Origin: Gammaproteobacteria bacterium
Lineage (GTDB): Bacteria; Pseudomonadota; Gammaproteobacteria; UBA4575
DNA: 64,000 bases
Reading direction: 5' to 3'
NCBI GenBank assembly: GCA_014075255.1
Contig: CP046178.1
Coordinates: 1,504,894 to 1,568,893, forward strand
The notes beneath the pieces are model-generated. The model did no database searches and was not told the origin of the DNA. It worked only from the letters and a program-made list of their open reading frames with translations. This document shows, one piece after another, positions 5,868 through 22,190 of this stretch (its first letter is position 1; each line of letters begins with the position of its first letter). Position numbers and translations under genes: made by a program.

Positions 5868-7920
<2,053 letters not shown>

Positions 7921-8008
7921 TCTGTAATTTTAATTGAATCACGACTGCATTGATATGGTTAAGGGATCATTATTGGTATAAGAATTACTTGAATGTGTTG
8001 CTCAAACA

Positions 8009-9037
8009 GTGAACACACCGTACCCTTTTACATATTCTGATTTATTAAACTTATTTATGACTTTTAACGTGGCTATTGTCGGACCTGGCCGAAGCAAGCA
8101 AGGCACAGGCCCATTCATTGCGCGAACTTTTAAACAGCTGGGATGCGACGTCCAAGCTATAGTTAGCAGCTCGCTAGATTCTGGCCATCAGGCAGCCGAT
8201 GTTTTGAAAAATGAGTATGCAATTAATTGCACAGCTTATGAAAATCTTGAAGCGTTATTAAAAACTCACTCAATTGACATAGTCGTAATCAGTAGTCCAG
8301 CCAATACCCACCTTCAGCACCTAATCACAGCAGTCCAGGCAGGATGTCATGTGTTTTGCGAAAAACCTCTTTGGTGGTCTAATTTAGATTTTACTTCTGA
8401 AAGTGATATAAGAAAAATCACCAGTGAAGCTAAAGAGGTAGTAAATTTATGCCGTACCAACAAAGTATTACTGCAATTAAATACTCAATGGCCTTACACA
8501 CTGCCCACATACTATGAGCTATACCCACAACTAAAAAGCCCACAGGCTATCGAGTCATTTTCAATGTGGCTATCGCCACAAAGCCAAGGCAGCGCTATGA
8601 TCGTAGATGCTGTCCCGCATTTATTAAGCATGCTGTTTTCCATAGTCGGCAATGGAAAAATCAATAATATCGAATCAAATTATATTGCAGCAAATCTTGA
8701 TCAGGACTTACTGATTAAATTCGATTACTTACATGCATTCGGGGATACGCGAGTTTCGATCTCACTAACTTCTAGCAATACCTCCCCCAAACCAGCAGCC
8801 TATGCCATTAACGATCTGCGGGCTGATAGACATGTTGAACTCCCTCATTACCTGATATCATTACGCTCAGTTGAACATCAATTACCTGTAGAAGACCCTC
8901 TGGTTTGCTCTATCAAGAACTTTATAAGTACTATTCACTCTAAAGCCACATCTGATGAAGTCACATTAATTGACGGCATGACGCAGCTAGCGCAAATTTA
9001 TCAAGCGGCAACCCAACCAAAGAATACATTGGAATAA
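8009..9037 (+). CDS. Gfo/Idh/MocA-family NAD(P)-dependent oxidoreductase
   Basis: N-terminal Rossmann motif VAIVGPGRS and the conserved EKP motif (VFCEKPLWW). The predicted start is GTG. The stop overlaps the start of the radical SAM gene. Confidence 0.6.
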   Translation: MNTPYPFTYSDLLNLFMTFNVAIVGPGRSKQGTGPFIARTFKQLGCDVQAIVSSSLDSGHQAADVLKNEYAINCTAYENLEALLKTHSIDIVVISSPANTHLQHLITAVQAGCHVFCEKPLWWSNLDFTSESDIRKITSEAKEVVNLCRTNKVLLQLNTQWPYTLPTYYELYPQLKSPQAIESFSMWLSPQSQGSAMIVDAVPHLLSMLFSIVGNGKINNIESNYIAANLDQDLLIKFDYLHAFGDTRVSISLTSSNTSPKPAAYAINDLRADRHVELPHYLISLRSVEHQLPVEDPLVCSIKNFISTIHSKATSDEVTLIDGMTQLAQIYQAATQPKNTLE

Positions 9038-10422
9038 TGGAAAAAATACATACTGAAAGCGGCGAAGTGTTAATGACTCTTTCACCCCTCATTGATTTTA
9101 CTAAGCATAACTTTGAGGAAAAACAAGATTCTACTCCACTTCATGTGAAGACTGTTTCACACGAAGTCGTTAAGCAGACTGAGCTGTCCCCCATTCATGA
9201 CTTCATGGGCAAGCTACGCCAACCGGAAGTGCTTGGTAAATTAAAAGAATACGTCGAATGGCAAGTACAATGGCGCGAAGGTTACGCTAATAACTCTATG
9301 ACGCTTGATGAAGCCTTAGAAATGGCACCTATCAGCGCACCTATTTCTATTAACTTAGACGCTACCACCGTATGCAATTACAAATGTGATCACTGCGTGG
9401 ACATGGATATTCTAAATAAAAATATTCACTACGAGCATGAGAAATTAAAAAACTCACTCACTTATCTAGCAGAAAAAGGCCTACGCTCTGTAATCATTAT
9501 TGGCGGCGGCGAACCCACGGCTTACAAGGGCTTTGAAGATATTGTTCGCCATTTAAAGTCAATGGGCATTCAGATTGGTGTGGTAACCAATGGCAGCTTG
9601 ATGAAGAAAGTTGAAGCAGTTGCCGAAGTGCTAGATGAACGTGATTGGGTGCGACTATCTTTAGATTCTGGAACCAATGAAACCTTTCGCGCAATGCATA
9701 AGCCTGGCAGCAAGAAAGTTACTCTAGAATGGATTTGTAGCCATATTCCTCATATCAAAAAGGTTAACCCAAAATTTAAAATTGGTTTTAGTTTCATTAT
9801 TGTATGGAAAGACTGCGAAACCAACGATACAAAAATCATCGAAAACGTTGATGAGATGCTTGCTGCCGCCAAAATGGCGAAAGACCATCAATTCGATTAC
9901 ATCTCTTTCAAGCCTTTCTTAACGCGCGCAGAGGCAAACAACGCAGAAGTTATCGGCATTGATAAAGAACAAGAGCATGTTGAATCAATCATGAAAAAAA
10001 TTCGTGCTTCAGTTACAGAATCTATGCAATTAGAAGACGATAACTTTGCCGTGATTGAAAGCACAAATTTACGTGTGTTAGAAAATGGCACCTACATGAA
10101 CTACACTGAACAGCCACATAACTGTCATATGCAGTATTTCAGACAAGTACTAAGCCCACTTGGTGTATTCAATTGCCCAGTATATCGCCATGTACCACAA
10201 GCTTTATTAGGTGAAAAACATGCTTACGATACACAAGCTGGTGTTATCGAAACACAAAAAAATACATTGCGCCTTATTGAAGCTTTTGATGCTACAGAAG
10301 AATGCAAAGATGTGACCTGTTTATATAATCATGCAAACTGGTTTATTGAGGATTTAATCAATCATCCTGAAAAACTAGACTCATTAGATTCAAGTTTTGA
10401 TCGTGGCGACTTCTTTCTCTAA
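9037..10422 (+). CDS. radical SAM enzyme with ~100-aa N-terminal extension and Cys-rich C-terminal region
   Basis: CNYKCDHC is a CX3CX2C radical SAM motif. A GGGEP SAM-binding motif is present. Additional Cys residues in the C-terminal third. Translationally coupled to 8009..9037 (ATAATGG). Confidence 0.8.
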   Translation: MEKIHTESGEVLMTLSPLIDFTKHNFEEKQDSTPLHVKTVSHEVVKQTELSPIHDFMGKLRQPEVLGKLKEYVEWQVQWREGYANNSMTLDEALEMAPISAPISINLDATTVCNYKCDHCVDMDILNKNIHYEHEKLKNSLTYLAEKGLRSVIIIGGGEPTAYKGFEDIVRHLKSMGIQIGVVTNGSLMKKVEAVAEVLDERDWVRLSLDSGTNETFRAMHKPGSKKVTLEWICSHIPHIKKVNPKFKIGFSFIIVWKDCETNDTKIIENVDEMLAAAKMAKDHQFDYISFKPFLTRAEANNAEVIGIDKEQEHVESIMKKIRASVTESMQLEDDNFAVIESTNLRVLENGTYMNYTEQPHNCHMQYFRQVLSPLGVFNCPVYRHVPQALLGEKHAYDTQAGVIETQKNTLRLIEAFDATEECKDVTCLYNHANWFIEDLINHPEKLDSLDSSFDRGDFFL

Positions 10423-11430
10423 TAATCTCTGCGCACTTTCGTAGACTTTATCAACTTCGATATTATTCAAACAGTTGTAATGCCCGAAAGGGCATTGCTT
10501 CTTCCAGCAAGGACTGCACTCTAAACCTAAGTATTGAATTTCTTTCTTATCTGTTAATGGCGGTGTGTACTTAGGTGTTATCGCGCCATAGATAGCGACC
10601 ACTGGACTGCCTACTGCTGCTGCTATATGCATTAAGCCAGAATCATTTGTAACTGCCACTTTTACCAGTGAAAGTAAATCAATAGCTTCTTCTAGATTAG
10701 TTTGTCCGCACAAATTAACTGCATCGCCATTTGAAGCTTGAGCAATTTCTTCGCCAATTGGATTATCTTTTTGAGAACCATAAACATACACGTTATAACC
10801 TTGTTGCTTAAATCGAATAGCAAGCTCACCAAAATATTTTCCTGGCCATTGTTTAGATGGTCCAAATTCAGCACCAGGCATGAATGCTATCGAAGGAGTT
10901 AACTCATCAACTCCTACTTTTTTTGCAGTTTGGTGACGTTTTTTCTCGTCCACCATAAGTTGAGGATAGTAGATTTGCGGAGCCTGTTTTATTTTTTCTG
11001 GATCGGCTGCCAGATGCAGATATTTTTCCACAGCTTTATAGGTTAATTCTGTATCAAGCTCTCGCATTTCATTTACAACCCCGTAGCGCATTTCCCCTCG
11101 ATAGGCGATGCGTTTTGGGATTTTGGCAAAATATGGAATTAATGCAGACTTAAAGGTACGCGGCAGAATAATCGCCCGATCATATTCACCTCGCAAGCTT
11201 TTGCCTATTCGATAACGCTCAGCAATTTGTAGCTTACCGTGCTGGAGATTCACTTTTATAACCTGGCGCACTTCTGGCATCCGCGCAAGTACGGGTGCTG
11301 ACCATGCGGGCGCTACCACATCAATGATGTTGCCTGGATTTTGGCGTTTCAGAGCAATGAATAAACTCTGAACCATCACCATATCACCAACCCAAGCGGG
11401 GCCAATTACAAGTATCTTATTTGTACTCAA
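10390..11430 (-). CDS. waaF: ADP-heptose:LPS heptosyltransferase II
   Basis: Strong similarity to E. coli WaaF over the full length (ILVIGPxWVGDM, TNDSGLMHIAAA). Confidence 0.9.
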   Translation of the reverse strand: MSTNKILVIGPAWVGDMVMVQSLFIALKRQNPGNIIDVVAPAWSAPVLARMPEVRQVIKVNLQHGKLQIAERYRIGKSLRGEYDRAIILPRTFKSALIPYFAKIPKRIAYRGEMRYGVVNEMRELDTELTYKAVEKYLHLAADPEKIKQAPQIYYPQLMVDEKKRHQTAKKVGVDELTPSIAFMPGAEFGPSKQWPGKYFGELAIRFKQQGYNVYVYGSQKDNPIGEEIAQASNGDAVNLCGQTNLEEAIDLLSLVKVAVTNDSGLMHIAAAVGSPVVAIYGAITPKYTPPLTDKKEIQYLGLECSPCWKKQCPFGHYNCLNNIEVDKVYESAQRLLEKEVATIKT

Positions 11431-16061: not shown

Positions 16062-17117
16062 ATGAAACATCCGCCAAACTCAATTTGCATACTGCGTTTA
16101 TCCGCAATTGGTGATGTAACCCACATGATCCCAGTAGTACATACCCTGCAAAAATACTGGCCCAGCACCAAACTTACCTGGGTTATTGGTAAAAGTGAGG
16201 CTAATTTAGTCAAGGACCTTCCTGGTATCGATTTCATCATTTTCGATAAATCCAATACTATTGCAAGCTACCGATCCATTGCTAAAGCGATGAGAAAGCA
16301 GTTATTTGATGTATTGGTTTGTGCACAAGTATCATTCCGAGCTAATTTTATCAGCACACTCATACCTGCCAAACTTAAACTTGGTTACGACAAAGCACGC
16401 GCAAAAGATCTACATACACTATTTATTGATGAAAGTATTTCAGATACGCCTGAACAACATGTTTTAGATAGTTTTTTTAGCTTTATTGAATATCTTGGCT
16501 TAAATGAACGCGAACTTAGTTGGAAATATGAAATTTCTGATGACGCTCAAAGTTTTGCAAGTCAACACATCGATAAAAATCGTTTTAATTTAATTATCAG
16601 CCCTTGCTCAAGCCACCCAAGACGCAATTGGAGTAACGCACGTTATGCTGCCGTTGCAGATTACGCAGCTCAAACATTAGATGCACATATAATGTTATGC
16701 GGCGGCCCATCCGATTTAGAAAAAACAGCAGGTATCGAGATTGAAAGATCTATGCAAGCTCGAGCAACAAATTTGATTGGCAAAGACACTTTAAATAAGT
16801 TTCTTGCGCTTTTAAAATATGCTGACGCCATTATCACACCTGACTCCGGCCCGGCACACATGGCAACCGGGTTTAACACCCCCGTACTTGGTTTACATGC
16901 AGCAAGCAATCCTAAACGTAGTGGCCCCTATCTTAGTCAAGATTGGTGTATAGATAAGTATAATGATGCAGCAATAAGATTTAAGAACAAACCTGCCAAT
17001 GAACTTAAATGGGGTACAAAATTAGAATATGATGGCGTTATGGATTTAATCACCGTAGATGACGTTACATGCAAACTAGAACAACTCGTAAAACGACAAA
17101 CAAAAGGCAATAATTAA
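16062..17117 (+). CDS. glycosyltransferase family 9 (LPS heptosyltransferase, possibly heptosyltransferase I)
   Basis: GT9 N-terminal motif ILRLSAIGDVTHMIP. 351 aa. C-terminal region shows the donor-binding motif TPDSGPAHMA. Confidence 0.8.
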   Translation: MKHPPNSICILRLSAIGDVTHMIPVVHTLQKYWPSTKLTWVIGKSEANLVKDLPGIDFIIFDKSNTIASYRSIAKAMRKQLFDVLVCAQVSFRANFISTLIPAKLKLGYDKARAKDLHTLFIDESISDTPEQHVLDSFFSFIEYLGLNERELSWKYEISDDAQSFASQHIDKNRFNLIISPCSSHPRRNWSNARYAAVADYAAQTLDAHIMLCGGPSDLEKTAGIEIERSMQARATNLIGKDTLNKFLALLKYADAIITPDSGPAHMATGFNTPVLGLHAASNPKRSGPYLSQDWCIDKYNDAAIRFKNKPANELKWGTKLEYDGVMDLITVDDVTCKLEQLVKRQTKGNN

Positions 17118-17127
17118 ATATACAAAT

Positions 17128-17514
17128 ATGGAAAACATTAACATACCAATCTCCCCCGGTGAGCTCTTAGACAAAATCACAATATTAGAAATTAAATCTG
17201 AAAATATTGAAAATGAAGAAAAACTTGCTAACGTTGCAATAGAACTGAATCTTTTAAGTAAAATTTGGGGAAATACATCGCAAGATTCAGATCTCGAAGC
17301 TCTAAAAAAAGAGTTAAAAGACAATAATAAAGCTCTATGGGAAATTGAAGATAAAATTCGTATCAAGGAATCTAATAAAGAATTTGATCACGTATTTATT
17401 GAATTAGCTCGCTCTGTATATATTCAAAATGACAAGCGCGCAGATACGAAGAAAAAAATTAACCTAAAGCTTGGATCGATGATCGTTGAAGAAAAATCTT
17501 ATGCGGATTACTAA
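17128..17514 (+). CDS. hypothetical cytoplasmic protein
   Basis: 128-aa acidic/coiled-coil-like ORF inside the LPS core locus. Confidence 0.5.
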   Translation: MENINIPISPGELLDKITILEIKSENIENEEKLANVAIELNLLSKIWGNTSQDSDLEALKKELKDNNKALWEIEDKIRIKESNKEFDHVFIELARSVYIQNDKRADTKKKINLKLGSMIVEEKSYADY

Positions 17515-17515
17515 G

Positions 17516-18208
17516 TTACTTGCCACTTACATTCCGATTGCGATACCAGACAGAAAGCGCATACATCATCATAAAGAGTGCGAGTAAACATTCTTTAGTT
17601 TCACCCGCACGTATATCCAAGACAACTGGGATATCTATTTCAAGCAGCCTATAGACTTTCTCATGCCAGCTTACTAACAAAGAAAGTAATGCAGCTGGCA
17701 AACAAACATAGGTCGGCAACAACCAATCATAAAATGACTCTTTATTAGGCATATGATGTTTATACCTTCTAAATATAGGAATTAACACTCCACCAATCAA
17801 AGCAGCTAGTGACAATAAAGTTCTGGGTATTTGATCAAATATAGCAGCAGTATTATGTAAATTGGTTTCTTGTTGATCGTTAAACTCAGTCCACTGTTGC
17901 GGAGTACCCCAGCCAAAAAAGTGCTGCCCCCAGCTCATTTCTTCGCCAGCATAATAAATAGCACCTAGTAAAAATAAAACCATCCAGATCTTCAAGCCAG
18001 AAAACTGTACTCTCTGTTTTGCAAATAAAAATAACAAACAGGCAATTATTGCAGTAAGTAAAAATAACACTGTAATATTTTCGATTATCCCCTTTTCTCC
18101 ATACATATATGCATCTGTATGCACGCCTATAAAACGAGCTATATAAGGCATCACCGCAACAACAATGGGTAACAACAACCAAACTATTTTATGTAAATCT
18201 TTACTCAT
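17516..18208 (-). CDS. hypothetical polytopic membrane protein
   Basis: About 6 predicted TM helices with a conserved-looking EEMSWGQHFFGW segment. Confidence 0.5.
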   Translation of the reverse strand: MSKDLHKIVWLLLPIVVAVMPYIARFIGVHTDAYMYGEKGIIENITVLFLLTAIIACLLFLFAKQRVQFSGLKIWMVLFLLGAIYYAGEEMSWGQHFFGWGTPQQWTEFNDQQETNLHNTAAIFDQIPRTLLSLAALIGGVLIPIFRRYKHHMPNKESFYDWLLPTYVCLPAALLSLLVSWHEKVYRLLEIDIPVVLDIRAGETKECLLALFMMMYALSVWYRNRNVSGK

Positions 18209-18223
18209 AAATTTTACGCAACC

Positions 18224-18853
18224 TCAATTTCTACCAATCCATTTTTTTTGCTTACCCCTTCTATCCCAGTTTCTTAAACTACGGTAGTCACGAAATGATT
18301 TTTTTCGGATACCTAGTTTAAATGCAAGCCCAACAATTGGATTAGGCGGGAAAAGATATTGCGGCATAATATTAAAATCATACAGCTTAGGAATCCATTT
18401 TCCACTTGCTTTATTTACAAGCACATTACCAACACTAATATCTAGATCGTGTATGCCATTTGCCTCTGCTTCGCGCACTATTTCGTAACCGGACTCCAAT
18501 ATTTCACTAGGTAAACAACCAAGCTCAACTATCACTTGTTTTAGTATTTGTCCCGTAACCCGCTCTTGAACCATACAGTGAGTAAACTCGCCATCCTGTG
18601 GAAATACTCTATAAGGCTTAGCAATATATCGCTTTATTTTCGGCAACTCATACAGAGCCACATTTCTACCATATTCATACTTAGCGATATCAACTTGATA
18701 TTTATGTGCATATTTTTGCGCCACCTCTTCATGGTAGATCTTTATAATTACCGGCTCGCTATCTACGTATGCGTTATATGCGTGAGCACGCCCACCTCTA
18801 CCAATATACTCAGCAATTTCAATATCATTCGGTAAATTTATTTTTGATTCCAT
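18224..18853 (-). CDS. small protein-kinase-like fold protein (putative LPS/sugar kinase)
   Basis: Glycine-rich loop GRGGRAHAY, VIIKIY lysine, catalytic loop HDLDISVGNVLV and DFN motif. 209 aa. Confidence 0.55.
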   Translation of the reverse strand: MESKINLPNDIEIAEYIGRGGRAHAYNAYVDSEPVIIKIYHEEVAQKYAHKYQVDIAKYEYGRNVALYELPKIKRYIAKPYRVFPQDGEFTHCMVQERVTGQILKQVIVELGCLPSEILESGYEIVREAEANGIHDLDISVGNVLVNKASGKWIPKLYDFNIMPQYLFPPNPIVGLAFKLGIRKKSFRDYRSLRNWDRRGKQKKWIGRN

Positions 18854-18905
18854 GGAACTTTTTCTTGTTAGGGATATGCGCTCATCCAGGCGATCTATTA
18901 TTACA

Positions 18906-19820
18906 CTAACGCAACACTAAACTTTTCATTAATCTTGGAAAATGCTTCAAATTTAATACCGCTCTTGGCTCAAGCTTGGCAGCATTTAAATAATTTTGTG
19001 ATGCAATTTTATAATCTTTATTGATACAAGATATTCTGCCAACTTTTAAATATCTTTTTACCAATACATGCTTTTTTAATTTTAATAGCTCGTTGCTAGA
19101 AGGCAGGCTCGCAAATAATTCCTCAACACCATGTACTCCAGTTTCTATAATTCGTTGATAGTTTTCGCGCAAGCTATCTGTATGCCTTGGCATCTCCACT
19201 AAGATGTCTGGAATAGAAACACATTTATAATGATACATAACATGGCTAAAAAACATAGTGTCTTCATCCACATGCACCTTTAAAGGAAATTTAATCTTAT
19301 CTAATACACATCGCTTTAACACTGATGAACTAGGTCGTAGACCAACCATCTTTCCATTCAGAAGAGTTATAACGTTTTCCAAATTGCTCTCTACTAATTT
19401 TACAGGCGTACGTAATCGCAATTCACCACTGTAGCTTACAGCTTGATAACCACCAAAGATCATATCTATTTCTGATCGATTACTAATTTCCTCATAAACA
19501 ACCTTCAAAGTACCCGGCAACAACTTATCATCCGCATCCAGAAATAGTAAATAATCCCCACTGGATCGTTTATATCCATAATTTCTTGCGGTGGATACAC
19601 CTTGATTATCTTGATAAAAGTAACAAATATTAGAATTAGAATACTTGCCCTGCAGAGCCTCTACTACCGTGCTTGTATGATCCGTTGAACCATCATCCAC
19701 AACGATGATTTCGTGAGCAGACATGGTTTGATCAATAACTGACTTGATCGCTACGTCAATATAGTCTGCATAATTAAAACTGGGAATAATTATAGATAAT
19801 TTTATATTGTGATTGGACAT
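18906..19820 (-). CDS. glycosyltransferase family 2
   Basis: LSIIIPSFN...VVDDGSTD and DADD motifs. Confidence 0.8.
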   Translation of the reverse strand: MSNHNIKLSIIIPSFNYADYIDVAIKSVIDQTMSAHEIIVVDDGSTDHTSTVVEALQGKYSNSNICYFYQDNQGVSTARNYGYKRSSGDYLLFLDADDKLLPGTLKVVYEEISNRSEIDMIFGGYQAVSYSGELRLRTPVKLVESNLENVITLLNGKMVGLRPSSSVLKRCVLDKIKFPLKVHVDEDTMFFSHVMYHYKCVSIPDILVEMPRHTDSLRENYQRIIETGVHGVEELFASLPSSNELLKLKKHVLVKRYLKVGRISCINKDYKIASQNYLNAAKLEPRAVLNLKHFPRLMKSLVLR

Positions 19821-19835
19821 GGTTAGTTTTTAATT

Positions 19836-20765
19836 TTGCCTTATAATCCAATACAAGAAATTGTTAAAACAAACATGATTTTTAAAAAACTACCTGTGAA
19901 ATATATAGATGGCAAAAGTGGCGTCTATGCAATTTCCCCTAATATATCAGATAAAAACACCTTGCTCAGTTGGATTCAAAACAAGAATTTCGAAAAATTC
20001 GTAAATGGTGGTAATCAATTACTTCGACACACCCGCAAACGAAACAAACTATATACTTTTCAACACCCAATTTTTGATAAACAAGTTATCCTCAAGGTTT
20101 CCGAAATAGACAAGCAATACAAGCTTACGAGAAGAGTTAACTTATATCTATCCACCTTACTTAATGATTATAATTTTCGTGCATTTTCTGGCGCATGCCT
20201 TTTGCGTGAAAATGATATTACTTGCCCAGAGCCGATAGCCTACTGGAACGAAAAGCATTATTTTTTAATTAAAAAAAGTTATTATCTTTATGAAATGATC
20301 GAAGCTGATAACACTGTACACAGCTTTGCTGAAAAGTTGAGCGCTAAACGTAAATCCAGCTTAGACGAAATACAGAATGTGCTCGCAAACAAAATAGTTC
20401 GCGTTGTGCAAAGTATACATAGCGCAGGCTACAGACAAGGCGACCCTCACCCTGGTAATTTTTTAATTTCAAACTTTACCAAAAAGATATCAGAGCTGAC
20501 TACTGATGAAATAAACCAAGCACAAATATCTATCATAGACCTAGATAAGTTCAGTAATGCTCGAATTAATGCTAGCCATATAAAGCTATTTTTTGATGTT
20601 CGCTGTTTTAGACGTTGCACACTAGGCAAACTAAACCAGCAAGATATGTTAAAGATTTATATGGGAAATAAACATTCTAAATTATGGGCTATAGTTTTAG
20701 AATTTTGGATGCTTGGTGGGTTTAATTTCACCAAGTGGTTTAAATTTGAGAAAAAAAGAAAATAA
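19836..20765 (+). CDS. lipopolysaccharide kinase (Kdo/WaaP/InaA) family protein
   Basis: Catalytic loop GDPHPGNFLI and IIDLD motif. 309 aa. Confidence 0.6.
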   Translation: MPYNPIQEIVKTNMIFKKLPVKYIDGKSGVYAISPNISDKNTLLSWIQNKNFEKFVNGGNQLLRHTRKRNKLYTFQHPIFDKQVILKVSEIDKQYKLTRRVNLYLSTLLNDYNFRAFSGACLLRENDITCPEPIAYWNEKHYFLIKKSYYLYEMIEADNTVHSFAEKLSAKRKSSLDEIQNVLANKIVRVVQSIHSAGYRQGDPHPGNFLISNFTKKISELTTDEINQAQISIIDLDKFSNARINASHIKLFFDVRCFRRCTLGKLNQQDMLKIYMGNKHSKLWAIVLEFWMLGGFNFTKWFKFEKKRK

Positions 20766-22190
20766 TTAACTAGTTTTTATTTTTGAAATAAGCTCAGAAG
20801 TTGACCTAGATTGAACATATTCAATAGTCTTAACTTCACCACCATTTGCAGTTACCGATTCACCACCAACAATATCTTCTATCTTATAATCTCCACCTTT
20901 AACCAGAACATCCGGCAATATTGCACGAATTAATTCTTCAGGCGTGTCTTGATCAAACTCTACTAGCCAATTTACAGCTTGCAAACTAGACAAAACGGTC
21001 ATCCTATCCTTAATTTTATTGATTGGTCTAGAACCACCTTTAATTTTATTCACCGAACGATCAGAATTAACGGCCACAATTAATACATCACCAAGTTCTT
21101 TTGCTTTCGACAAATATTCAACATGACCAGAATGCAGAATATCAAAACAACCATTGGTCATAACAATTTTTTTTCCTTCACCTCGAAGAGATTTTACTTT
21201 TTTAATCAAGTCATCTTGAGGAATTATCTTGCCTAAAATTTCACTAGATCTATTGAGTTCATGTTCAATTTCGTTTCTTGTTACCGTAGCTGCACCAAGT
21301 TTACCCGCCACAACGCTCGCCGCTGCATTAGCAATGTTCACAGCATCTTCGAATGAAGAATCTGCAGCATAAGAGGCCGCTAATACGGAAATAAATGTAT
21401 CGCCAGCACCGGTTACATCAAACACTTCTTTGGCTCGGGCTGGAATATTCACAGTTTTACCTGATTTCTCTATAAGCATAACGCCTTTTTCACTGCGAGT
21501 AATGATTAAAGCGTTTAGATTTAGCTCGCTTAACAAGCCTAATCCTTTATCTACTAATTCTTGCTCACTGGAAACTTGCCCAACTACAGCTGTAAACTCT
21601 GATTGATTAGGTGTAATTGCGGTTACATTTTTATATTTAGAAAAGTCACCCCCTTTAGGATCCACAAAGATACTAGTACCCATAGAGTTGGCTTTGTTAA
21701 TAATCTCAGCAATGTCCTTTAATGCGCCTTTTTTATAGTCTGATAAAATCAGAACATTGTGCCTTTCGATTTCATTACAAACCCTGCTAGTTAATTTACT
21801 GACACTATCTCCTGAAAACTCACCTTCAAAATCTAAGCGTATTAGTTGTTGGTGGCGGCTGAGAACACGTAGCTTAGCTACGGTTTTTGCTAACGGATCT
21901 TTTATGCAATGCAGAGCTACATCTTCCTGCTGCAATAATTTTTCTAAGTGCTCTGCAGCCTCATCTTCACCCAGCAATCCTGCCAGTGTGCACTGACCGC
22001 CTAATGCAGTGATACTACGAGCCACATTACCCGCCCCTCCAGGCCGCTCTTCAAAATCTTTGACCAACACCACAGGCACTGGTGCTTCTGGAGAAATTCT
22101 TTGTGTATCGCCATTCCAGTAACGATCTAACATTAGATCACCCGCAACAAGAATGTTAGCCTTTGAGAAATCTGGTAAAGAAGTTGGCAT
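20766..22190 (-). CDS. hldE: bifunctional D-beta-D-heptose 7-phosphate kinase / D-beta-D-heptose 1-phosphate adenylyltransferase
   Basis: N-terminal ribokinase-like domain plus a C-terminal cytidylyltransferase domain (TNGCFDILHSGHVEYL). 474 aa. Confidence 0.95.
   Translation of the reverse strand: MPTSLPDFSKANILVAGDLMLDRYWNGDTQRISPEAPVPVVLVKDFEERPGGAGNVARSITALGGQCTLAGLLGEDEAAEHLEKLLQQEDVALHCIKDPLAKTVAKLRVLSRHQQLIRLDFEGEFSGDSVSKLTSRVCNEIERHNVLILSDYKKGALKDIAEIINKANSMGTSIFVDPKGGDFSKYKNVTAITPNQSEFTAVVGQVSSEQELVDKGLGLLSELNLNALIITRSEKGVMLIEKSGKTVNIPARAKEVFDVTGAGDTFISVLAASYAADSSFEDAVNIANAAASVVAGKLGAATVTRNEIEHELNRSSEILGKIIPQDDLIKKVKSLRGEGKKIVMTNGCFDILHSGHVEYLSKAKELGDVLIVAVNSDRSVNKIKGGSRPINKIKDRMTVLSSLQAVNWLVEFDQDTPEELIRAILPDVLVKGGDYKIEDIVGGESVTANGGEVKTIEYVQSRSTSELISKIKTS

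Follow-up and report, generated by a model that had tools for sequence, protein, structure and literature searches.

The window analysed here, a 64,000-nucleotide (nt) stretch of contig CP046178.1 (assembly GCA_014075255.1, positions 1,504,894 to 1,568,893 of the forward strand) from a gammaproteobacterium of the UBA4575 lineage, contains two adjacent genes for a Gfo/Idh/MocA-family oxidoreductase and a radical S-adenosylmethionine (SAM) enzyme within a locus for the inner core of lipopolysaccharide (LPS). Judged from sequence comparisons, both genes are real, and the radical SAM enzyme represents a new, large and unusually conserved family that is absent from curated databases. On the same evidence, the two proteins are one functional unit and the family is tied to the heptose and ADP-heptose pathway. 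The overall evidence leans towards a tailoring step on ADP-heptose, serving the LPS inner core, as the role of this unit. The positions of the two genes and their diagnostic motifs in the window are as follows.

8058–9037, plus strand: Gfo/Idh/MocA-family oxidoreductase of 326 amino acids (PF01408), start inferred from homologues
8360–8368, plus strand: EKP motif of the oxidoreductase, containing the catalytic Lys; E, K and P are 97–100% conserved in 99 partner proteins
9037–10422, plus strand: uncharacterised radical SAM enzyme of 461 amino acids (PF04055), with no match to a specific family
9178–9336, plus strand: N-terminal helical region of the radical SAM enzyme, residues 48–100 (HDFxxKLxQP...), conserved family-wide
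9373–9396, plus strand: CX3CX2C motif CNYKCDHC, residues 113–120 (C113, C117 and C120), the radical SAM [4Fe-4S] site, invariant in all alignments
9502–9516, plus strand: GGGEP SAM-binding motif, residues 156–160, invariant in the alignments
10123–10320, plus strand: C-terminal Cys-rich region, C363-X16-C380-X42-C423-X4-C428, a probable auxiliary [4Fe-4S] site in a twitch-like module

The oxidoreductase and the radical SAM enzyme are joined in single polypeptides in several lineages, namely in the fusion proteins P0122, P0126, P0136 and P0147 and in Planctomycetota open reading frames (ORFs) of 650–726 residues. In 64 of 73 genome loci, and likewise in most of 80 distant metagenome loci, the oxidoreductase gene immediately precedes the radical SAM gene. 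In the window, the stop codon TAA (9035–9037) and the start codon ATG (9037–9039) have one base in common at the gene junction, GGAATAATGGAA. It is on the basis of the fusions, the 1-nt overlap and the conserved adjacency that we treat the two proteins as one unit. A first-pass annotation of the window had described an overlapping gene pair encoding a functional dyad; both points hold, and the fusions make the coupling stronger than the overlap alone would suggest. In a separate case (P0123, L170:624–2762), a family member carries an N-terminal Ham1/RdgB non-canonical nucleoside triphosphate pyrophosphatase domain; its gene is located on a 3-kb contig after an unannotated ORF of 165 residues.

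The partner protein belongs to the Gfo/Idh/MocA family (PF01408, 69.7 bits against a cutoff of 24) and evolves much faster than the radical SAM enzyme, with a median identity of 38% to the window protein. Across the 99 partner sequences, E118, K119, P120, D200 and H204 (D-x3-H) are conserved at 94–100%, and strand β2 ends in V-[G/S]-[T/S]-[S/T], with no acidic residue. By the usual Rossmann-fold rule, a β2 end that lacks an acidic residue points to NADP(H), and the partner is thus expected to be NADP(H)-dependent. The Gfo protein is replaced by a FabG-like short-chain dehydrogenase/reductase (SDR; adh_short) in L079, L081, L161 and L162, and by an aldo-keto reductase in L168. Such non-orthologous displacement across three reductase superfamilies suggests that the radical SAM enzyme makes a carbonyl, which the partner reduces. 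Accordingly, the first-pass annotation was right about the EKP motif, but the sugar dehydrogenase role that it attached to the motif fits less well; the partner is probably a carbonyl reductase of the NADPH type.

The link to heptose includes P0125, in which an HldD-like domain (TIGR02197, 264 bits, just under the cutoff of 274.6) is fused to the radical SAM domain. This is the sole non-redox biosynthetic fusion partner found. On the same contig, an aldo-keto reductase gene is situated directly downstream, accompanied by genes for a GmhA-HldC fusion, a PfkB kinase, a HAD phosphatase and a glycosyltransferase family 9 (GT9) protein, which by sequence make up the whole ADP-heptose pathway (a gmhA-hldC/hldA/gmhB set). 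Elsewhere, in Planctomycetota and in L139, the gene directly upstream of the pair is a bona fide hldD (370 bits, which exceeds the cutoff), and several gammaproteobacterial loci also have hldD nearby. With neighbourhood gene labels assigned by tblastn, a cassette of HldC-type adenylyltransferase, GT9, Gfo and radical SAM genes recurs in varied order in L086, L102, L106, L111, L119, L138, L146 and L147. The order is GT9-HldC-radical SAM-SDR in L161, and in L163 Gfo and radical SAM genes stand between GT9 and HldE. The compact cassettes carry genes for HldC and a WaaF-type GT9 without genes for 3-deoxy-D-manno-octulosonic acid (Kdo), and the WaaF equivalog cutoff is exceeded by six of the nine GT9 proteins taken from cassettes in distant loci (150–186 bits).

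For counts by lineage, the 166 loci were collapsed at 60% identity into 21 clusters, and 14 of these had flanks of 2.5 kb or more on each side. A reductase is adjacent in 12 of the 14 lineages, and a heptose gene occurs within 5 kb in 10. Since genomes carry just a handful of heptose genes, a random gene would have such a neighbour by chance in a few per cent of cases, a figure that is our own estimate and not a computed control. The LPS link persists at 40–50% protein identity and across different gene orders. Conservation of the pair in contexts other than LPS, which the first-pass annotation had named as an outcome that would speak against it, was not encountered, and a WaaF-type GT9 gene adjoins the pair in distant lineages, as waaF does in the window. 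Its suggestion of an undescribed dyad that modifies a sugar of the LPS core is supported and can be narrowed to heptose by the HldD-like fusion, hldD, HldC/HldE and the WaaF-type GT9. An E. coli GmhA probe found nothing in the loci, in which gmhA was seen only as a Pfam-annotated SIS-CTP_transf fusion in L168. The possibility that the pair replaces HldD was rejected, because hldD adjoins the family or is fused with it. In another setting, L159 (444–2558, on a Thermodesulfobacteriota-type contig), the pair is located inside a large envelope cluster containing a second Gfo gene paired with a DegT aminotransferase gene, which we take to be GnnA/GnnB-like, together with several PMT_2/ArnT-like genes and GT2 and LAB_N genes.

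The radical SAM protein matches PF04055 with 67.3 bits against a cutoff of 29.5, placing it in the superfamily, and no curated family for it was found in Pfam, NCBIfam (June 2026), PADLOC or the PDB (2026). Its best NCBIfam matches are to prokaryotic viperin (72.5 bits, cutoff 180), a tungsten-cofactor maturase (63.8 bits, cutoff 380) and MoaA (49.6 bits, cutoff 284), and they span the N-terminal core only. Specifically, the viperin-family models NF038283/TIGR04278 gave 72.5 bits against 180 and 30.1 bits against 450, over residues 103–272 only. The best PADLOC match is pVip (73.7 bits), and sequence and profile searches of the PDB returned core-only matches to viperins, YydG, MoaA and SkfB. 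Assignment to viperin, tungsten-cofactor maturase, MoaA, NrdG or the maturases of ribosomally synthesised and post-translationally modified peptides (RiPPs) was rejected, as all matches are below threshold and confined to the radical SAM core. A full-length match to a well-known housekeeping family, the other outcome that the first-pass annotation had set against its proposal, did not appear. In a collection of 5.8 billion proteins, the source names are all generic ("radical SAM protein" or a COG-level MoaA/TYW1 label), and no published description of the family was found in the literature on radical SAM enzymes combined with ADP-heptose, heptose, heptosyltransferase or Gfo/Idh/MocA.

The family comprises about 2,000 proteins at E ≤ 1e-40, and homologues of both genes reach E = 0. 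An exhaustive search of 1.84 billion cluster representatives yielded 115 clusters at E ≤ 1e-30. Full-length identity is 64–97% among uncultured marine Gammaproteobacteria and 54–67% to Planctomycetota. Sister clusters (E 1e-26 to 1e-57 in the representative search) are likewise devoid of annotation, and a homologue search from the mixed alignment A2 retrieved the close family again with little new. Phage records, plasmid records and IMG/VR contigs contained no close family member, and the relatives found there have at most 30% identity over substantial matches and up to about 35% over fragments of ~100 residues; a mobile or phage origin was rejected on this ground.

Three relatives deserve separate description. 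P0271 (564 residues) has the top score in both profile searches (740–767 bits) with a query coverage of just 63%, and may hold a partial duplication or be an assembly artefact on its 2-kb contig. In P0265 (786 residues), a remoter sister with E 9e-27 against the family profile, the radical SAM part is joined to an AmgK-like anomeric sugar kinase domain, which hints at a role of the wider clade in the metabolism of sugar 1-phosphates or nucleotide sugars. The third is a distant sister in Streptomyces sp. BHT-5-2 (L167:11911–13023, NZ_CP081497.1; 29% identity, 370 residues) that keeps the N-terminal KLxQP motif and, by eye, a C-terminal Cys-rich stretch. Its neighbours, read by eye from their translations without a domain library, include genes for a GHMP-type kinase, a Nudix hydrolase, an NAD-dependent epimerase/dehydratase, an amidinotransferase-like protein and sugar ABC transporters; this setting may be a natural-product or sugar cluster.

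Invariance of residues in the radical SAM protein was scored over alignments reaching down to 33% identity. The CNYKCDHC and GGGEP motifs pointed out in the first-pass annotation are located as listed above. The N-terminal extension of ~100 residues is also as it had described, since the cluster motif begins only at residue 113. Residues 1–47 of this extension are restricted to the gammaproteobacterial clade, and the profile match of distant members begins at about position 44–57. At the C-terminus, C363, C380, C423 and C428 are invariant among 24–52 diverse homologues. Further invariant polar residues are K59, D108, D122, D203, R206, D210, H221, K292, R297, R384, Y430 and N434. A SPASM domain is defined by a C-terminal seven-Cys pattern (CX9-15GX4C...CX2CX5CX3C...C) that binds two auxiliary clusters, in addition to a match to the hidden Markov model. 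The radical SAM protein gave no match to the SPASM model PF13186, and its four invariant cysteines, spaced by X16, X42 and X4, lie outside the classical SPASM pattern, again as had been noted in the first pass.

The structure of the radical SAM protein was predicted with AlphaFold2 from a diverse alignment of 52 sequences, giving a predicted local distance difference test score (pLDDT) of 90.8 and a predicted template modelling (TM) score of 0.91; an earlier alignment of 21 close homologues had given a pLDDT of 63. Helices 56–60, 63–84 and 90–95 of the N-terminal region were modelled at pLDDT 91–98. The top Foldseek match is DesII (E 7e-12, TM-score about 0.5), and the closest folds to the model are BlsE, SkfB, SuiB, MoaA, DesII and viperin. 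The predicted order of C-terminal elements is C363, a β-hairpin, C380, a helix and C423/C428, resembling the one-cluster "twitch" module. This module, of the BtrN, MoaA and SkfB type, is a truncated SPASM domain with a Cys-flanked β-hairpin followed by a helix and one auxiliary Fe-S cluster. According to the model, the protein is a distinct member of the SPASM/twitch-related clade, which holds known radical SAM enzymes for nucleoside- and nucleotide-linked sugars. Neither a cobalamin-binding domain (PF02310) nor a HemN_C domain was detected in it by Pfam, so that class B (cobalamin) and class C (HemN-like) methyltransferases were dropped as candidates. The N-terminal region of the model is helical and does not form a Rossmann-type B12 domain. 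Given the two undetected domains, C-methylation, one of the chemistries offered in the first-pass annotation, is unlikely.

Comparative genomics gives good support to a heptose as the substrate and to a WaaF-type GT9 heptosyltransferase as the recipient of the product. The heptose is most likely nucleotide-activated, as ADP-glycero-manno-heptose: the HldD-like fusion suggests consecutive steps on an ADP-sugar, and the closest folds include enzymes for nucleotide- and nucleoside-linked sugars, alongside peptide maturases. A possible model for the chemistry is found in the C3' deoxygenation of paromamine during apramycin biosynthesis, where AprD4, a radical SAM 1,2-diol dehydratase, works with AprD3, an NADPH-dependent reductase (PMC5461906). 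The present unit would be alike in joining a radical SAM enzyme for a sugar diol with a dedicated NAD(P)H reductase for the resulting carbonyl (PMC5461906). Its reductase is adjacent or fused and is drawn from three reductase superfamilies. The radical SAM protein does not belong to the AprD4-type diol dehydratases. By this analogy, deoxygenation is the chemistry that we favour, with considerable doubt. The 5'-deoxyadenosyl radical would remove a hydrogen at one of the carbinol carbons of the heptose, for which the exocyclic C6''/C7'' diol would be an attractive site, and the ketyl-type radical would then expel the neighbouring hydroxyl. With the auxiliary cluster settling the redox balance, the resulting deoxy-keto (or deoxy-aldehyde) sugar would be reduced by the NADPH-dependent partner to a deoxy-heptose. 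Radical chemistry would be justified here because the hydroxyl to be removed, such as that at C7'', is beyond ordinary 4-keto SDR chemistry. Carriers of the family include marine and sponge-associated Gammaproteobacteria, Planctomycetota, Thermodesulfobacteriota, and soil and groundwater bacteria. It is a serious possibility, which we stop short of calling likely, that they share a widespread, unrecognised radical-SAM-dependent branch of ADP-heptose metabolism, in which a new deoxy (or epimeric) donor would be installed by WaaF-type transferases in the LPS inner core.

Several observations weigh against a tailoring step on ADP-heptose. Four of the 14 lineages (e.g. L159, L165, L070 and L090) have no heptose gene within 5 kb, and in L159 the flanks contain genes for a GT4 protein, a Kdo-kinase-like protein and ArnT-like proteins, with no heptose gene within 8 kb. 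The gammaproteobacterial signal is largely inherited synteny and was counted as one lineage. Gene association alone does not separate ADP-heptose from heptose phosphates or the lipid-linked core. The twitch-like auxiliary [4Fe-4S] cluster is a probable one, as read from the invariant cysteines and the predicted secondary structure. Every carrier genome from the genome scan is metagenome-assembled, with no cultured carrier among them, and we know of no deoxy or otherwise unusual heptose reported from these lineages.

As the main alternative of this kind, the same pair acting on the same heptose could instead bring about an epimerisation, through a twitch dehydrogenation of the BtrN/SpeY type to a ketone, with the electron passing to the auxiliary cluster, and a subsequent NADPH reduction from the opposite face. 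This is unlikely in our view: epimerisation at a carbinol carbon of sugar nucleotides normally takes one SDR, as HldD does at C6'', it is difficult to see why one SAM and one NADPH should be spent on each turnover, and BtrN and SpeY are not the closest folds. A role in LPS or envelope glycan synthesis on a substrate other than heptose (CMP-Kdo or Kdo, another nucleotide sugar, or the lipid-linked core after transfer) would agree with the divergent position of the pair beside waaA and kdkA in several clades (L048, L052–L054, L105, L141 and L158), with the gene content of L159, and with the lineages in which no heptose gene is nearby. We regard such a role as improbable, because the only non-redox biosynthetic fusion partner is an ADP-heptose enzyme by likeness and the compact cassettes combine HldC with a WaaF-type GT9 and no Kdo genes.

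The association might also be mere synteny around an enzyme that modifies a nucleotide (like viperin/pVip), matures a cofactor (like MoaA or the tungsten-cofactor maturase) or modifies a peptide (like the SPASM/twitch RiPP maturases). The recurrence of the heptose association through independent gene orders and fusions makes this very improbable, and neither a defence-island nor a RiPP-precursor context was seen in the loci examined; nor is there a close family member in the phage, plasmid or viral sequences searched. In its favour, the best core matches are to prokaryotic viperin, the tungsten-cofactor maturase and MoaA, SkfB and SuiB are strong structural neighbours, and the Ham1/RdgB fusion in P0123 hints at nucleotide chemistry, but the sequence matches are far under their cutoffs and limited to the N-terminal core.

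Returning to a sugar-tailoring function on ADP-heptose, comparison with characterised enzymes suggests a new radical SAM sugar-tailoring family, for which both the substrate class and the pathway context would be new. DesII, which acts on TDP-4-amino-4,6-dideoxy-D-glucose in the desosamine pathway, and BlsE, the cytosylglucuronate decarboxylase of blasticidin S biosynthesis, are similar in being radical SAM enzymes for activated sugars, and the radical SAM protein falls outside the sequence families of both. Identity to DesII is 13–15%, and a PDB sequence search does not retrieve it; moreover, DesII has no dedicated reductase partner, and the set of four cysteines is peculiar to the present family. 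BlsE is 13% identical, decarboxylates a uronic acid and also lacks a reductase partner; the relative P0125 alone matches its model TIGR04466, with a weak 30 bits where the cutoff is 400. BtrN and SpeY are twitch radical SAM dehydrogenases of aminocyclitol pathways and MoaA is a twitch GTP 3',8-cyclase. None of the three gives a family-level sequence match (the MoaA model, TIGR02666, stays at the low score given above), and in contrast to them the present family has an extra conserved N-terminal helical region and a different genomic context. The number of ligand cysteines also differs from MoaA, being four in the present family and three in MoaA. The radical SAM core is most similar in sequence to viperin and pVip, and viperin uses a radical mechanism to dehydrate the ribose of a nucleotide. 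The match is well short of viperin membership, however; viperins are about 300 residues long, and the genomic context here is not related to defence. To our knowledge, viperins have no auxiliary cluster.

We are aware of no radical chemistry in the textbook pathway for the LPS inner core (Kdo and heptose). If the unit does act on ADP-heptose, a radical SAM step would be known for the first time in the biosynthesis of the LPS core, and a pathway that ranks among the most thoroughly studied in bacteria would gain a new reaction and probably a new sugar. A family with thousands of members, which databases label merely "radical SAM protein", would thereby receive a function. The comparative data yield a testable hypothesis with ADP-heptose as the candidate substrate, SAM and NADPH as cofactors, and known partner proteins. 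The ADP-heptose pool would be altered as well. ADP-heptose is an innate-immune agonist that is sensed by the ALPK1 pathway of the host, and several carriers are sponge symbionts; one may speculate on these grounds that a modified heptose could matter for host–microbe recognition.

The other features of the locus to which the arrangement of the pair relates are given below.

7800–7920, minus strand: thiamine pyrophosphate (TPP) riboswitch (RF00059, 62.3 bits), leader of thiC
7998–8026, plus strand: promoter-like element of the two-gene operon (TTGCTC, 17-nt spacer, TACCCT), conserved in close relatives
10390–11430, minus strand: waaF, heptosyltransferase II (TIGR02195, 442.7 bits, above the equivalog cutoff of 134.6)
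16062–17117, plus strand: second GT9 heptosyltransferase-family gene of the core locus, best match heptosyltransferase I (102 bits, below the cutoff)
20766–22190, minus strand: hldE (PfkB kinase and cytidylyltransferase-like adenylyltransferase; Pfam PF00294 and PF01467), ADP-heptose synthesis

Mechanical ORF calling placed the co-directional pair on the plus strand at 8009–9037 and 9037–10422. Both ORFs exist as described in the first pass, with a correction at one end: the oxidoreductase almost certainly starts at ATG 8058 (MTFNVAIVGPG...) and not at GTG 8009, because its close homologues begin there and GTG 8009 falls within the conserved promoter-like element. This element is kept across an alignment of the upstream regions of nine loci, with the core CCGTACYCT. 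A consensus promoter scan did not call the element at 7998–8026, which is too weak for it, and the support comes from conservation only. The TPP riboswitch and the putative divergent promoter of the pair occupy one intergenic region of 297 nt (7761–8057), and no functional link between the riboswitch and the gene pair was found. A thiamine connection by way of thiC or the TPP riboswitch was rejected, as only one gammaproteobacterial clade shows the adjacency and distant loci lack it.

On the other side, waaF is convergent with the radical SAM gene, and their 3' ends overlap by 33 nt (10390–10422). The 3' flank of the pair further contains genes for a PCMT-like methyltransferase and a rhodanese-like protein (labelled from its translation and size alone, without a domain-library run), followed by tolC, waaA, kdkA and the second GT9 gene; further downstream are DUF6165, kinase-like and GT2 genes and hldE. 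The tail-to-tail overlap with waaF and the setting between the thiC riboswitch and the waaA, kdkA, hldE and GT9 genes are thus confirmed in every element that the first-pass annotation had listed.

A locus almost identical to that of the window was found in L001 (CAXMUG010000066.1), with 97% identity over the thiC-Gfo-radical SAM-waaF segment. Its genes are those of a gammaproteobacterial LPS core, so the name under which it was deposited, "uncultured Mycobacterium sp.", almost certainly reflects a binning error. The segment at 17128–20765 of the window encodes DUF6165 (128 residues), an unannotated membrane protein (230 residues), a kinase-like protein of 209 residues and a WaaY-like protein of 309 residues. 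This block is kept in 30–40 related loci beside the GT9 gene and the pair, and in one clade (L034-type) it is located directly upstream of the pair.

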